Shown: in pieces, positions 58,901 through 64,000 of the stretch
Position numbering within the stretch: the first letter of the stretch is position 1
Layout: the number at the start of each line of letters is the position of its first letter
NCBI RefSeq assembly: GCF_988243305.1
Contig: NZ_OZ547136.1
Strand: one strand, 5' to 3'
DNA: 64,000 bases
Program-made: the position numbers and the translations under genes
Notes under the pieces: generated by a model
Databases searched by the model: none
What the model saw: only the letters and a program-made list of their open reading frames with translations
Told to the model about the DNA's origin: nothing

Positions 58901-59433
58901 ATTAATCTGACCATCATTTTCTATAAGACGGCATATTTAATCGCATTATACGATATGGGTTATTTTTCTTTTGTAAATTGTTCAACCCGGTGCAATGGCT
59001 ATTTTGTTATTATTTCATGAATAATATCAGTGCGTCATAATTCAAGTTAATCACCTTAAGGGATATTAGTTATATTTAAACTGAATTAAAGTAATGAATA
59101 ATTTTCTTATAATATAAGGTAAATTAACAAAATGGCTTCGCATTTAACAATAACCGAAGAGAAAACAACCATTTCGATATCAACAATCGCTTACATTCGC
59201 TTATATATTGACCAGAACTGATACATCAGATTATGTGATGACTCGTGCTTAGATCAATTTTTGCAATCATTAGCCAAAAGATTAATAAACCATCTATATC
59301 AATTTATCTAACCTATTCTTCCGTTCAAGAAATCGCCGAACAGTTATTTTTAACAAATTTTTCTCTTCCCATTGACTTTCCCGGACACCTTGTCTGACCT
59401 AAGGTGCGCGAAAGCCACTTTTTCCTTCCTGAG

Positions 59434-59454
59434 TTATCCACAAAGTTATGCACT
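59434..59454 (+). promoter_or_regulatory. Tandem DnaA boxes upstream of the nrdA promoter
   Basis: TTATCCACA (59434-59442, perfect consensus) and TTATGCACT (59446-59454, 8/9). Confidence 0.8.
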
Positions 59455-59520
59455 TGCAAGAGGGCCATTTTCACACTATCTTGCAGTGAATCCCAAACAT
59501 ACCCCCTATATATAGTGTTC
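59454..59520 (+). promoter_or_regulatory. nrdAB promoter (-35 TTGCAA at 59454-59459, -10 TATCTT at 59477-59482) with putative NrdR boxes
   Basis: Hexamers with 17-bp spacing; partially palindromic elements CACACTATCTTGCAGTG (59473-59489) and CCTATATATAGTGTT (59504-59519) resemble NrdR boxes. Confidence 0.5.
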
Positions 59521-59595
59521 TAAGCAGCTTCCCTCACTACAGGTAGTCTGCATGAAACTATTGCGGAAAGAATTCCAAAAACAGGTACGACATAC

Positions 59596-61881
59596 ATGAA
59601 TCAGAATCTGCTGGTGACAAAGCGCGACGGTAGCACAGAGCGCATCAATCTCGACAAAATCCATCGCGTTCTGGATTGGGCGGCAGAAGGACTGCATAAC
59701 GTTTCGATTTCCCAGGTCGAACTGCGCTCCCACATTCAGTTTTATGACGGTATCAAGACCTCTGACATCCACGAAACCATTATCAAGGCTGCCGCAGACC
59801 TGATCTCCCGTGATGCGCCGGATTATCAGTATCTCGCCGCGCGCCTGGCAATCTTCCACCTGCGTAAAAAAGCCTACGGCCAGTTTGAGCCGCCTGCGCT
59901 GTACGACCACGTGGTGAAAATGGTCGAGATGGGCAAATACGATAATCATCTGCTGGAAGACTACACGGAAGAAGAGTTCAAGCAGATGGACACGTTTATC
60001 GATCACGACCGTGATATGACCTTCTCTTATGCTGCCGTTAAGCAGCTGGAAGGCAAATATCTGGTACAGAACCGCGTGACCGGCGAAATCTACGAAAGCG
60101 CCCAGTTCCTTTATATTCTGGTTGCCGCGTGCCTGTTCTCGAACTACCCGCGTGAAACGCGCCTGCAATACGTGAAGCGTTTTTACGACGCGGTTTCCAC
60201 ATTTAAAATTTCGCTGCCGACGCCAATCATGTCCGGCGTGCGTACCCCGACTCGTCAGTTCAGCTCCTGCGTACTGATCGAGTGCGGTGACAGCCTGGAT
60301 TCCATTAACGCCACCTCCAGCGCGATTGTTAAATACGTTTCCCAGCGTGCCGGGATCGGCATCAATGCCGGGCGTATTCGTGCGCTGGGTAGCCCGATTC
60401 GCGGTGGCGAAGCGTTCCATACCGGTTGTATTCCGTTCTATAAGCATTTCCAGACAGCGGTGAAATCCTGCTCTCAGGGCGGTGTGCGTGGCGGTGCGGC
60501 TACGCTGTTCTACCCGATGTGGCATCTGGAAGTGGAAAGCCTGCTGGTGTTGAAAAACAACCGTGGGGTGGAAGGCAACCGCGTGCGTCACATGGACTAC
60601 GGGGTACAAATCAACAAACTGATGTATACCCGTCTGCTGAAAGGTGAAGATATCACTCTGTTCAGCCCGTCCGACGTACCGGGGTTGTACGACGCGTTCT
60701 TCGCCGATCAGGAAGAGTTTGAACGCCTGTACACCAAATATGAGAAAGACGACAGCATCCGCAAGCAGCGTGTGAAAGCCGTTGAGCTGTTCTCGCTGAT
60801 GATGCAGGAACGTGCGTCTACCGGTCGTATCTATATTCAGAACGTTGACCACTGCAATACCCATAGCCCGTTTGATCCGGCCATCGCGCCAGTGCGCCAG
60901 TCTAACCTGTGCCTGGAAATCGCCCTGCCGACCAAACCGCTGAATGATGTCAACGACGAGAACGGTGAAATCGCGCTGTGTACGCTGTCTGCTTTCAACC
61001 TGGGCGCAATTAATAGCCTGGATGAACTGGAAGAGCTGGCGATTCTGGCGGTACGCGCACTCGACGCGCTGCTGGACTATCAGGATTACCCGATCCCGGC
61101 CGCCAAACGTGGAGCGATGGGTCGTCGTACGCTGGGTATTGGTGTGATCAACTTCGCTTACTACCTGGCGAAGCACGGTAAACGCTACTCCGACGGCAGC
61201 GCCAACAACCTGACGCATAAAACCTTCGAAGCCATTCAGTATTACCTGCTGAAAGCCTCTAATGAGCTGGCGAAAGAGCAAGGCGCGTGCCCGTGGTTTA
61301 ACGAAACCACTTACGCGAAAGGGATCCTGCCGATCGATACCTATAAGAAAGATCTGGATGCCATCGCTAATGAGCCGCTGCATTACGACTGGGAAGCACT
61401 GCGTGAGTCAATCAAAACGCACGGCCTGCGTAACTCCACGCTTTCTGCCCTGATGCCGTCCGAGACCTCTTCGCAGATCTCTAACGCCACTAACGGTATT
61501 GAACCGCCGCGCGGTTACGTCAGCATCAAAGCGTCGAAAGACGGTATTCTCCGCCAGGTGGTGCCTGACTACGAGCATCTGCACGACGCCTATGAGCTGC
61601 TGTGGGAAATGCCGGGTAACGATGGCTACCTGCAACTGGTGGGTATCATGCAGAAATTTATCGATCAGTCGATCTCTGCTAACACCAACTACGATCCGTC
61701 ACGCTTCCCGTCAGGAAAAGTGCCGATGCAGCAACTGCTGAAAGACCTGCTCACCGCCTACAAATTCGGGGTCAAAACGCTGTATTATCAGAACACCCGT
61801 GACGGTGCTGAAGACGCACAAGACGATCTGGTGCCGTCAATCCAGGACGATGGCTGCGAAAGCGGCGCATGCAAGATCTGA
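59596..61881 (+). CDS. nrdA: Class Ia ribonucleoside-diphosphate reductase alpha subunit NrdA
   Basis: 761-aa ORF MNQNLLVTKRDGSTERINLDKIHRVLDWAAEGL with ATP-cone and catalytic cysteines. Confidence 0.97.
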   Translation: MNQNLLVTKRDGSTERINLDKIHRVLDWAAEGLHNVSISQVELRSHIQFYDGIKTSDIHETIIKAAADLISRDAPDYQYLAARLAIFHLRKKAYGQFEPPALYDHVVKMVEMGKYDNHLLEDYTEEEFKQMDTFIDHDRDMTFSYAAVKQLEGKYLVQNRVTGEIYESAQFLYILVAACLFSNYPRETRLQYVKRFYDAVSTFKISLPTPIMSGVRTPTRQFSSCVLIECGDSLDSINATSSAIVKYVSQRAGIGINAGRIRALGSPIRGGEAFHTGCIPFYKHFQTAVKSCSQGGVRGGAATLFYPMWHLEVESLLVLKNNRGVEGNRVRHMDYGVQINKLMYTRLLKGEDITLFSPSDVPGLYDAFFADQEEFERLYTKYEKDDSIRKQRVKAVELFSLMMQERASTGRIYIQNVDHCNTHSPFDPAIAPVRQSNLCLEIALPTKPLNDVNDENGEIALCTLSAFNLGAINSLDELEELAILAVRALDALLDYQDYPIPAAKRGAMGRRTLGIGVINFAYYLAKHGKRYSDGSANNLTHKTFEAIQYYLLKASNELAKEQGACPWFNETTYAKGILPIDTYKKDLDAIANEPLHYDWEALRESIKTHGLRNSTLSALMPSETSSQISNATNGIEPPRGYVSIKASKDGILRQVVPDYEHLHDAYELLWEMPGNDGYLQLVGIMQKFIDQSISANTNYDPSRFPSGKVPMQQLLKDLLTAYKFGVKTLYYQNTRDGAEDAQDDLVPSIQDDGCESGACKI

Positions 61882-61910
61882 TAATCCCCCAGCCTTTGCA
61901 CCAAACCGTC

Positions 61911-61933
61911 CCCTCTCCCCTTGCGGGAGAGGG
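61911..61933 (+). other. GC-rich stem-loop in the nrdA-nrdB intercistronic spacer
   Basis: 9-bp perfect stem CCCTCTCCC/GGGAGAGGG with loop CTTGC; no downstream T-run, so not a canonical terminator. Confidence 0.6.
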
Positions 61934-61969
61934 TTAGGGTGAGGGGTAATAAAACCACAGGACACATTC

Positions 61970-63100
61970 ATGGCATATACCACCTTTTCACAGACGAAAA
62001 ATGATCAGCTCAAAGAACCGATGTTCTTTGGTCAGCCGGTCAACGTGGCTCGCTACGATCAGCAAAAATATGACATCTTCGAAAAGCTGATCGAAAAGCA
62101 GCTCTCTTTCTTCTGGCGTCCGGAAGAAGTTGACGTTTCTCGTGACCGTATCGATTACCAGGCACTGCCTGAACACGAAAAACACATCTTTATCAGCAAC
62201 CTGAAATATCAGACGCTGCTGGACTCCATTCAGGGTCGCAGCCCGAACGTGGCACTGCTGCCGCTGATCTCGATCCCTGAACTGGAAACCTGGGTCGAAA
62301 CCTGGGCGTTCTCAGAAACCATTCACTCTCGTTCTTATACCCATATCATTCGTAATATCGTTAACGATCCGTCCGTTGTGTTTGATGATATCGTCACCAA
62401 CGAGCAGATCCAGAAACGTGCGGAAGGGATCTCCAGTTATTACGATGAGCTGATCGAAATGACCAGCTACTGGCATCTGCTGGGCGAAGGTACCCACACC
62501 GTTAACGGTAAAACCGTAACCGTTAGCCTGCGCGAGCTGAAGAAAAAACTGTATCTCTGCCTGATGAGCGTTAACGCGCTGGAAGCGATCCGCTTCTACG
62601 TCAGCTTTGCTTGTTCCTTTGCCTTTGCAGAACGCGAACTGATGGAAGGTAACGCCAAAATTATTCGCCTGATTGCCCGCGACGAAGCCCTGCACCTGAC
62701 CGGTACTCAGCATATGCTGAATCTGCTGCGCAGCGGTGCGGATGATCCGGAGATGGCGGAAATTGCCGAAGAATGTAAGCAGGAGTGCTATGACCTGTTT
62801 GTCCAGGCGGCACAGCAAGAGAAAGACTGGGCGGATTATCTGTTCCGCGACGGTTCGATGATTGGTCTGAATAAAGACATTCTCTGCCAGTACGTTGAAT
62901 ACATCACCAATATCCGCATGCAGGCAGTCGGTTTGGATCTGCCGTTCCAGACGCGCTCCAACCCGATCCCGTGGATCAATACCTGGCTGGTGTCTGATAA
63001 CGTGCAGGTTGCTCCGCAGGAAGTGGAAGTCAGTTCTTATCTGGTCGGGCAGATTGACTCGGAAGTGGACACCGACGATTTGAGTAACTTCCAGCTCTGA
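61970..63100 (+). CDS. nrdB: Class Ia ribonucleotide reductase beta subunit NrdB
   Basis: 376-aa [58 protein letters not shown]. Confidence 0.97.
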
Positions 63101-63354
63101 TGGCTCGCGTTACCCTGCGCATCACTGGCACACAACTGCTGTGCCAGGATGAACACCCTTCCCTTCTGGCGGCGCTGGAATCCCACAATGTGGCGGTTGA
63201 GTACCAGTGCCGCGAAGGTTACTGCGGTTCCTGTCGCACGCGCCTTGTTGCAGGCCAGGTGGACTGGATTGCCGAACCGTTAGCCTTTATTCAGCCGGGG
63301 GAAATTTTGCCTTGTTGTTGCCGGGCAAAAGGCGATATTGAAATCGAGTTGTGA
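63100..63354 (+). CDS. yfaE: 2Fe-2S ferredoxin YfaE (NrdB maintenance)
   Basis: 84-aa ORF with ferredoxin cysteine pattern (CREGYCGSC ... CCC); 1-nt overlap with the nrdB stop. Confidence 0.92.
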   Translation: MARVTLRITGTQLLCQDEHPSLLAALESHNVAVEYQCREGYCGSCRTRLVAGQVDWIAEPLAFIQPGEILPCCCRAKGDIEIEL

Positions 63355-63366
63355 TCGGGTACTAGC

Positions 63367-63398
63367 GCCAGATACGACGCTTACGCGTATTATCTGGC
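63367..63398. repeat. REP-like palindrome / putative bidirectional terminator between yfaE and inaA
   Basis: GCCAGATA ... TATCTGGC inverted repeat (8-bp arms, 16-nt loop). Confidence 0.5.
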
Positions 63399-63407
63399 CT
63401 ACAACGA

Positions 63408-64000
63408 TTACATGGCGTAGTAATACGCTTTCACCTGCTCCCAGTCCGCTTTGGGGATCGGCTCCAGATATTTTTCCAGCTGGCGGAAGTCATGATTAAT
63501 CGCTTTATCGCGACGCAAGCGGCGACGACTTTTCTCCAGATCAAGAAATCCAGCTTCTGCCTTACCTTCTGTTTTCACATAGATATGGCGAACATAGCAA
63601 CAGCCATGCTGACGATTAACGCTATGCATTTTCTTAAACGCCAGCGCCACTGCTTTCAACATGGCTTGCCGTACTTCGTCAGAATAGGGCGTTACTGCAT
63701 GCCGGGCATACCAGTCAGCAATGCTGATGAACCCCGCCATATCTTCAGTCACCAGCAACGCGCGCCATTCCCCCTCAATTTTCACCGCTTCACCAAAAAC
63801 AATCTTCGGCACGATGACACCAGCCCGTTCCAGTTCTTTAATTACCGCAACCTCACGGACAATCGTTGGTCGGCCGAACGGATAACGTACGGAATGAAAC
63901 AGATGATGCGTCATGCGCTTTACATATAGCTTTTTGCCGTTGCGCTCGACGCATTGCACCCCGCTCATACCATTACGGCGATAGTTAGGCTCTTCAACCC
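63408..64000 (-). CDS. inaA: Acid-inducible putative lipopolysaccharide kinase InaA; N-terminus lies beyond window end
   Basis: Minus-strand ORF open to the window edge; visible portion ..MSGVQCVERNGKKLYVKRMTHHLFHSVRYPFGRPTIVREV ... KAYYYAM recognised as InaA. Confidence 0.88.
   Translation of the reverse strand, partial: VEEPNYRRNGMSGVQCVERNGKKLYVKRMTHHLFHSVRYPFGRPTIVREVAVIKELERAGVIVPKIVFGEAVKIEGEWRALLVTEDMAGFISIADWYARHAVTPYSDEVRQAMLKAVALAFKKMHSVNRQHGCCYVRHIYVKTEGKAEAGFLDLEKSRRRLRRDKAINHDFRQLEKYLEPIPKADWEQVKAYYYAM

Follow-up and report, generated by a model that had tools for sequence, protein, structure and literature searches.

BoxC elements, also known as PIT ('potential intrastrand triplex') or TM-ECO elements, are multi-copy intergenic repeats with a published unit length of 50-56 nt; their literature, as it is cited in PMC4666352, comprises Bergler 1992, Bachellier in the 1990s, and Hoyne and Maher 2000 and 2002. 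The second loop of the unit defines its type: TTA marks type A and CCG type B, and each has an 'mm' variant with one mismatched triplet (PMC4666352). Catalogued in K-12 are 23 copies, of which 13 are of type 'A mm' with a G.A mismatch (PMC4666352). Single-stranded DNA oligonucleotides of type A form an intrastrand purine-motif triplex in vitro, as followed by CD, NMR and melting, with a Tm of ~82 C; RNA does not adopt the purine-motif triplex (PMC4666352). TM-ECO showed no association with gene class or function, orientation, operon position or expression (PMC4666352).

The second described system that is close to the one analysed here is the REP/BIME array that K-12 carries between nrdA and nrdB. 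Liang, Rudd and Deutscher 2015 (Mol Cell 58:431) reportedly used nrdAB as their model, and the study is said to draw links to tmRNA and UV stress. As that work is summarised in PMC12306157, a ribosome that terminates less than 16 nt from a REP is stalled by it, with reduced translation as the outcome, and the K-12 nrdA-nrdB REP is reported, in the account given by PMC12306157, to down-regulate NrdA translation. REP stem-loops are also known as mRNA stabilisers and attenuators (PMC12306157, PMC2267715).

Here we describe the nrdA-nrdB spacer in a 64-kb stretch of Escherichia coli DNA (the window, by which we mean the whole stretch analysed). The hairpin of this spacer is very probably the Watson-Crick-paired portion of one BoxC/PIT/TM-ECO element, a perfect type-A copy that stands singly and is generic rather than dedicated. 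Like the REP/BIME array that occupies the same spacer in K-12, it is a dispersed extragenic palindromic repeat, and it is predicted to give the nrdAB mRNA a stable stem-loop.

The hairpin in the nrdA-nrdB spacer

Positions 61911-61933 of the window read CCCTCTCCC-CTTGC-GGGAGAGGG, which gives a perfect 9-bp stem (7 G-C and 2 T-A pairs) closed by a 5-nt loop, 29 nt from the nrdA stop and 36 nt from the nrdB ATG (Table 1). A previous sequence-only reading of this DNA had described the same G/C-rich stem around CTTGC, and the 30 and 37 bp that it gave for the two distances differ from ours by counting convention only. It had likewise noted that a T-run is missing, and the sequence 3' of the stem, TTAGGGTGAGGGGTAATAAAACC, agrees with that. 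Folded as RNA, the hairpin alone has a free energy of -17.6 kcal/mol. When the isolated spacer is folded, each pair of the stem has a probability of 0.96-1.0; with 40 nt of context on either side, eight of the nine pairs keep probabilities of 0.99-1.0 and only the outermost one is weakened, to 0.65. By these models, formation of the RNA hairpin in the nrdAB transcript is very likely. A match to the stem pattern with up to 2 mismatches is expected by chance 0.01 times per 64-kb window, and one was found in 1 of 100 shuffles. The entire 88-nt spacer shows a modest excess of folding over its shuffles (z = -1.84), modest because a spacer with one C-rich and one G-rich half folds well even when shuffled.

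Table 1. Features of the nrdA-nrdB region (positions of the window)
Feature	Position	Strand	Basis
nrdA CDS, class Ia ribonucleotide reductase alpha	59596..61881	+	ORF list; 100% match to annotated E. coli nrdA
nrdA stop TGA	61879-61881	+	ORF list
nrdA-nrdB spacer, 88 nt, 'BoxC allele'	61882..61969	+	sequence and ORF list
C-run TCCCCCAGCC	61886..61895	+	compared by eye with inverted BoxC pairs
Approximate full BoxC unit, ~54 nt, including left flank GCACCAAACCGTC	61897..61950	+	alignment with nine other E. coli copies
Block 1, pyrimidine arm CCCTCTCCC, 5' hairpin arm	61911..61919	+	
Loop 1, CTTGC, varies among copies	61920..61924	+	
Block 2, purine arm GGGAGAGGG, 3' hairpin arm	61925..61933	+	
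Loop 2, TTA, 'type A' TM-ECO marker	61934..61936	+	
Block 3, third arm GGGTGAGGG(G)	61937..61946	+	
Four G3 tracts with 3-nt loops, GGGAGAGGGTTAGGGTGAGGGG, canonical G-quadruplex motif	61925..61946	+	
Likely nrdB Shine-Dalgarno AGGA, 7 nt 5' of ATG	61959..61962	+	sequence
nrdB CDS, ATG at 61970	61970..63100	+	ORF list

The hairpin is not an intrinsic terminator, a role that the sequence-only reading had also thought less likely. A consensus scan of the nrdA-nrdB spacer found neither a terminator-like nor a promoter-like site, and the tail of the hairpin, TTAGGGTGA, is not the immediate U-tract that follows the G/C hairpin of an intrinsic terminator. These results agree with the absence of promoter and terminator activity reported for PIT elements (Hoyne and Maher 2002, as cited in PMC4666352). 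An Rfam scan of 59000-64000, with E values up to 10, returned no credible family in the spacer; one opposite-strand match (E = 9.5), to an antizyme frameshift element of eukaryotes, was discarded as not credible.

Another possible reading is a Rho-dependent partial attenuator, in which Rho would load on the C-rich and G-poor 61882-61920, with 21 C and 3 G in 39 untranslated nt, and the hairpin would serve as a pause. The attenuation described by Espeli et al. 2001 for BIMEs is said to be Rho-dependent. Attenuation of transcription by BIME elements is indeed reported from Espeli et al. 2001, as cited in PMC12306157 and PMC2267715, but the stretch in question is only ~39 nt long and a translated cistron follows it directly, and in the published assays PIT elements were without terminator activity (PMC4666352), so that we regard a Rho-dependent role as highly improbable.

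Identity and dispersal of the repeat

Immediately 3' of the stem come TTA and then, at 61937-61946, a third block, GGGTGAGGG(G), which the earlier reading had overlooked. The whole of 61911-61946 therefore reads CCCTCTCCC CTTGC GGGAGAGGG TTA GGGTGAGGG G, a three-block unit, and the hairpin is two thirds of a repeat. As a signature of BoxC we used CCCTC(T/G)CCC, a loop of 3-5 nt, GGGAGAGGG, a second loop of 3 nt and the third arm GGGTGAGGG. When the three blocks of the window are aligned with 21 further distinct copies, and with those in Table 1 of PMC4666352, they correspond in every column. Holder et al. 2015 list the identical 36-mer, CCCTCTCCCCTTGCGGGAGAGGGTTAGGGTGAGGGG, at least 12 times in their supplementary file, for example in E24377A and SE11 (PMC4666352), and one SE11 entry of that catalogue, 2592880-2592915, falls between nrdA (which ends at 2592850) and nrdB (which starts at 2592939). 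The element is also 90.9% identical over 44 nt to copy no. 7 of K-12, near fepB. Outside the blocks, the left flank GCACCAAACCGTC resembles the GCACGGACnGTC that is common to the aligned E. coli copies, and the right flank GGGG(T/A)AA is common as well; the boundaries of the unit are approximate.

Compared with the catalogued type A elements, the window copy has the same three blocks, the same spacing and the same TTA loop, is intergenic and belongs to a multi-copy family, and nothing essential differs. It is a perfect type A, in contrast to the 'A mm' copies that make up 13 of the 23 in K-12, it stands singly and not as a member of an inverted A+B pair, and it occupies a site that is empty of BoxC in K-12. 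Nothing contradicts the identification as BoxC. Since the exact copy at the nrdA-nrdB site has been catalogued and the family has been described since the 1990s, the element is already known, and as a finding it is minor, being one more copy of a known, catalogued repeat.

Although the purine arm and the third arm together also make up the only canonical G3N3G3N3G3N3G4 motif in the 64-kb window, and all four G tracts are kept across copies, an RNA G-quadruplex formed at 61925-61946, competing with the hairpin and modulating nrdB translation or mRNA decay, seems very improbable. The first two G tracts pair with the upstream C-arm with a probability of ~1.0, NMR of the DNA oligonucleotide showed a triplex and excluded a quadruplex (PMC4666352), and for roughly half of the genomic copies any transcription is in the C-rich orientation.

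The BoxC unit is widely dispersed. Matches to its 48-nt core (61903-61950) numbered 81,270 and were spread over 5409 of the 5426 complete E. coli genomes, the median genome having 17. An E. coli genome has ~15-25 members of the family in its intergenic regions. Ten places were fetched from different strains and represent nine distinct loci, as the nrdD-nrdG spacer was fetched from two strains. The other loci are the gabT-gabP, flgF-flgG, recA-recX and cstA-ybdD spacers, sites downstream of argE and of fepB, and the intervals between the convergent pairs ybcF/purK and tldD/aaeR. The element of the window and all nine of these loci are intergenic. No second BoxC copy was found in the 64-kb window, even with 2 mismatches allowed, and the repeat nature is therefore invisible from the window alone. 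This advises caution: enterobacterial intercistronic hairpins should be checked against REP/BIME, BoxC and ERIC before a locus-specific role is proposed for them.

Dispersed copies also allow a comparison of the stem across loci. The alignment, in which the loops were padded with N and the arms kept in register, comprised 22 distinct copies, drawn from E. coli and from six further genera. None of the pairs of the 9-bp stem was changed on both sides, pair 6 was broken in 6 of the 22 copies (five G.A and one U.U), and the covariation score in this set was not above shuffle or slide controls. The third arm GGGTGAGGG, which is unpaired in RNA, was invariant at its 9 core bases in 22 of 22 copies. 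The lack of covariation together with the invariant third arm indicates that the conserved thing is the three-block sequence and not an RNA helix, and gives no sign of selection on the stem at the RNA level. The sequence-only reading had proposed conservation of compensatory changes as a check on its hairpin, and a lack of covariation or conservation of the stem as the outcome that would speak against it; with no compensatory change in 22 copies and pair 6 broken in six, the latter is essentially what we find for this stem. A structured cis-regulatory RNA was likewise rejected, as there was neither covariation nor a credible Rfam match.

Alleles of the spacer in E. coli and other Enterobacterales

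A 651-nt region (61600-62250) that runs from the last part of nrdA through the spacer into the first part of nrdB is 100% identical to strain CFSAN061763 and is 95-100% identical to all but one of 5426 matching E. coli records. The 88-nt BoxC spacer itself, at a coverage of at least 80%, was recovered from 1683 (31%) of the 5426 complete E. coli genomes. In four other alleles that were read the spacer is of the REP/BIME kind, without a BoxC arm, and measures 233 nt in K-12, 226 in O157:H7, 189 in strain 401656 and 145 in strain N4220121. The spacer is highly polymorphic in E. coli, the lengths seen numbering five (88, 145, 189, 226 and 233 nt). The REP palindrome (of the GCCGGATG...CATCCGGC type) was not found in the window spacer, whereas the alleles of K-12, O157, N4220121 and 401656 had 3-7 motif hits each. 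BoxC and REP/BIME are mutually exclusive alleles that belong to unrelated sequence families. The BoxC allele (MFE of -30 kcal/mol) offers one 9-bp hairpin and the K-12 allele (-117) several REPs, and the K-12 REP helix begins 6 nt past the nrdA stop, compared with 29 nt for the BoxC stem. E. coli strains that carry the BoxC allele all have the same stem and differ in the second loop, where TTA is changed to TAA or GAC, the GAC loop extending the stem to 14 bp.

The allele at this site is incongruent with its flanks, a BIME being present in a strain with 99% identical flanks and BoxC being shared at 97% flank identity. Taken together with the five spacer lengths, this is also what might be expected from an effect at the level of DNA, in which the G-rich strand, when single-stranded in replication or transcription, would transiently fold into an intrastrand purine-motif triplex. 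Polymerase pausing and recombination would follow and turn the spacer into a hot spot of rearrangement, and consequences for the mRNA would be incidental. Such an effect would be consistent with the third arm being the most conserved part of the unit, with the melting temperature of the triplex in vitro, with the block to DNA polymerase that the triplex element imposes in vitro, and with the significantly higher inter-strain variability of TM-ECO loci relative to intergenic controls (PMC4666352). However, no stable triplex was detected by DMS footprinting in vivo and the in vivo tests of PIT were also negative (PMC4666352), and hot-spot behaviour is not specific to BoxC, given that the REP/BIME alleles vary between 145 and 233 nt without it. 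We therefore see a DNA-level effect as possible, if somewhat unlikely. The presence of BoxC here is best explained by turnover of repeats in a spacer where a stem-loop is either tolerated or advantageous.

To see how this spacer is occupied elsewhere, one genome per species was scanned for the nrdB start region, which yielded at least 120 loci, and the spacer was extracted from 111 of those. Our Enterobacterales set comprises 93 spacers, 92 among the matches listed and that of the window. By simple motif rules of our own, and in a species sample that is arbitrary among the matches listed, 41 of the 93 are REP/BIME-like, 13 (the window included) carry BoxC as single copies or inverted pairs in either orientation, 16 have a G/C hairpin followed by a T-run, and 23 are of other kinds; ~11 of the latter (Buttiauxella, Cedecea and two 'Enterobacter sp.' contigs) have a hairpin with the T-run partly in the stem.

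BoxC was found in this spacer, among the matches listed, in Enterobacter, Phytobacter, Pseudocitrobacter, Pluralibacter, Buttiauxella and Raoultella. Its arrivals in these six genera were apparently independent, which could reflect selection rather than insertion preference; a preference of the repeats for inserting at hairpin or terminator sites could also explain the occupancy without selection. In Enterobacter, Phytobacter and Pseudocitrobacter some of these spacers hold inverted BoxC pairs, which start with TAAATCCCCTCACCC. From this resemblance, the C-run at 61886-61895 of the window may be what is left of an inverted BoxC partner that has been lost, namely of its outer arm (CCCCTCACCC). 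In the isolated spacer the C-run (61886-61891) and the third arm form an outer helix with a probability of ~0.55, which falls to ~0.04 with 40 nt of context on either side. A structure placed by this helix 4 nt past the nrdA stop was dropped, since it vanishes with that context.

The hairpins with a T-run lie mostly in spacers of 42-60 nt, in Atlantibacter, Kosakonia, Cedecea, Buttiauxella, Serratia and Pantoea among the matches listed, and a similar hairpin with a T-run is present in the spacer of Rodentibacter (Pasteurellaceae). In these other Enterobacterales and in Rodentibacter the elements occupy the same gene interval as the BoxC of the window and have G/C-rich stems of 7-12 bp. They begin 2-8 nt past the stop codon, in contrast to the window BoxC, which begins at 29 nt, has no T-run and is a member of a repeat family. 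A terminator scan of two such spacers from other genera (L006 and L070) gave no call, and they are 'terminator-like' by our own rule only; the lack of a call is likely because the upstream A's extend the stem into the T-run.

In spite of this variety of elements, structure in the spacer is common. The median MFE z-score is -4.0, with 88 of 92 spacers (the 92 among the matches listed) below -2. In a set of 98 spacers, composed of the same 92 and six E. coli alleles including the window, a helix of at least 6 bp starts within 15 nt of the nrdA stop in 91, at a median of 7 nt. K-12 falls within this range at 6 nt, and the window allele, at 29 nt, is among the few outliers of the set.

Possible consequences for nrdAB expression

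The sequence-only reading had thought the hairpin more likely to be an mRNA stability or processing element, or a partial attenuator, modulating nrdA:nrdB stoichiometry; we considered it as a hairpin that is specific to nrd and evolved to set the ratio of the two products. A stable hairpin between two co-transcribed cistrons, with no U-tract, is what such an element would look like, stem-loops are near-universal in this spacer among the Enterobacterales spacers listed, and the stabilising and attenuating REP stem-loops (PMC12306157, PMC2267715) provide a precedent. Its sequence, however, recurs at ~17 unrelated loci per genome, it is missing from the spacer in 69% of E. coli, its covariation is zero, and the published surveys found no link to gene function, operon position or expression (PMC4666352). 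We consider an nrd-specific hairpin improbable. Dispersal, 31% occupancy and the lack of covariation leave a dedicated role in nrdA:nrdB stoichiometry unsupported, and what survives of the proposal is a generic one, which is plausible for a stem-loop at this position, given the strong stem-loops in nearly all of the Enterobacterales spacers listed and the reported regulatory role of the K-12 REP. For a BoxC copy of the kind proposed here, the element would be co-transcribed in the nrdAB mRNA, where the sense strand would form only the 9-bp G/C hairpin, a purine-motif triplex being impossible in RNA. The hairpin would then act at most as a generic stable stem-loop, that is, as a barrier to 3'-to-5' exonucleases and as a structured spacer.

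A generic element may still have consequences at this particular site. The K-12 nrdA-nrdB REP array, itself a published model of translational control by REPs, is replaced by BoxC in ~31% of E. coli, and since the K-12 REP at this site is reported to be regulatory, the replacement of REP by BoxC may not be neutral. The BoxC stem, at 29 nt, falls beyond the limit of 15 nt reported for ribosome stalling by a REP, within which the K-12 helix lies. A broader proposal, which we make tentatively and hold to be rather unlikely, is that a stem-loop at the nrdA stop is a selected feature of Enterobacterales, supplied by interchangeable, unrelated elements, and that the BoxC allele of E. coli is a natural variant of the REP-based control of NrdA. 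Were this true, the stem would have moved from ~6 to 29 nt, and about a third of E. coli would be without the brake on NrdA, or would have a weaker one, which would make this a widespread regulatory polymorphism in an operon essential for dNTP supply. If selection is at work, the natural alleles provide a ready test of the '15-nt rule' and of the balance of the ribonucleotide reductase subunits.

At the other end of the spacer, the AGGA of nrdB has probabilities of being unpaired of 0.65-0.96 in the isolated spacer and of 0.30-0.92 with 40 nt of context on either side, and in the model of the isolated spacer this likely Shine-Dalgarno sequence is predicted not to be sequestered by the BoxC element. 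Downstream of it, an 84-aa ORF, yfaE (63100-63354), overlaps the nrdB stop.

Stem-loops beside the nrdA stop codon

We compared 98 nrdA-nrdB spacers, comprising Enterobacterales loci L005-L124 and the E. coli alleles. Among the matches listed, 91 of the 98 carry a helix of at least 6 bp that starts no more than 15 nt past the nrdA stop (median 7 nt), and 92 of the spacers give a median MFE z-score of -4.0. At least nine unrelated sequences supply this helix among the same matches. This result suggests a positionally conserved stem-loop near the nrdA stop that may undergo turnover.

In many genera among the matches listed, the spacer is very short (42-60 nt) and consists of a G/C hairpin followed by a T-run, beginning 2-8 nt past the nrdA stop. 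This arrangement lies only about 20-30 nt ahead of the nrdB start. It occurs in Kosakonia, Atlantibacter, Cedecea, Buttiauxella, Serratia and Pantoea, and also in Rodentibacter. By our own motif rule, at least 16 of the listed spacers belong to this class, and in about 11 further ones the stem takes in part of the T-run. The short spacers look like an intra-operon terminator or attenuator, which transcription of nrdB would have to read through. A terminator scan of two of them (L006 and L070) called neither.

Three records in the collection (L105, L121 and L103) look mislabelled or contaminated. A 458-bp contig filed as 'Paenibacillus glycanilyticus' and a MAG contig filed as 'Pseudomonas sp. 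UBA4617' both have an nrdB start of enterobacterial type, and the spacer of 'Citrobacter freundii M-21' is one base off that of Atlantibacter hermannii, unlike other Citrobacter spacers.

Spacer alleles within E. coli

When positions 61600-62250 of the window were compared with E. coli genomes (matches H1-H14), the spacer allele was incongruent with flank similarity. A strain whose nrdA and nrdB flanks are 99% identical to the window carries a BIME (the REP-type spacer), and the BoxC allele is common to the window and to strains with only 97% identical flanks. Such incongruence would fit a nrdA-nrdB spacer that has recombined or been replaced more than once.

The BoxC allele itself varies. In E. 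coli Iso00225 (L135) and genome-search matches H59-H64, GAC replaces the TTA of the second loop, so that the 9-bp hairpin becomes one of 14 bp (CCGTCCCCTCTCCC/GGGAGAGGGGACGG). Genomes with this variant have just 2-4 BoxC-like places each, compared with the usual median of 17.

The spacer also bears on yoaM, annotated in K-12 as an antisense small ORF of 11 codons, whose start overlaps the nrdB ATG and whose end falls within the REP array. Since the same antisense ATG in the window opens a different, much longer frame that crosses the BoxC element, yoaM, judged by its reading frame, is not conserved across spacer alleles.

Repeat elements in the window and at other loci

Across both strands, the 64-kb window has a single canonical G-quadruplex motif, GGGAGAGGGTTAGGGTGAGGGG, which forms the G-rich half of the BoxC element. 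Just past the yfaE stop (63354) lies a weak match (28.9 bits, E = 0.03, under the gathering score) to naRNA4, an Rfam family of RNA derived from REP, and GCCAGATACGACGCTTACGCGTATTATCTGGCCTAC at this match looks like a diverged REP.

Coordinates and loci of the features (window positions unless a locus is named)
Feature	Position or locus	Strand or orientation
G-quadruplex motif	61925-61946	
naRNA4 match	63324-63399	
Antisense frame in the window	61837-61983	-
yoaM (K-12)	L001 451-486	antisense
Short hairpin and T-run spacers	L006, L025, L057, L069, L070, L094, L096, L116, L117 and others	
BoxC, nrdD-nrdG	L125, L127 (E. coli 23CRST013, THO-008)	antisense to transcription
BoxC, recA-recX	L133 (E. 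coli O145:H28 RM13514)	
BoxC, gabT-gabP	L126	
BoxC, flgF-flgG	L128	
BoxC, cstA-ybdD	L134	

In some strains a perfect type-A BoxC also lies between both cistrons of the anaerobic ribonucleotide reductase operon, nrdD-nrdG; a list of 23 K-12 BoxC copies has none there (PMC4666352). Its presence in both reductase operons is probably a coincidence. BoxC copies are often flanked by adjacent co-oriented genes, as at recA-recX, gabT-gabP, flgF-flgG and cstA-ybdD; such spacers are probably internal to operons, and their occupancy by BoxC differs from strain to strain.
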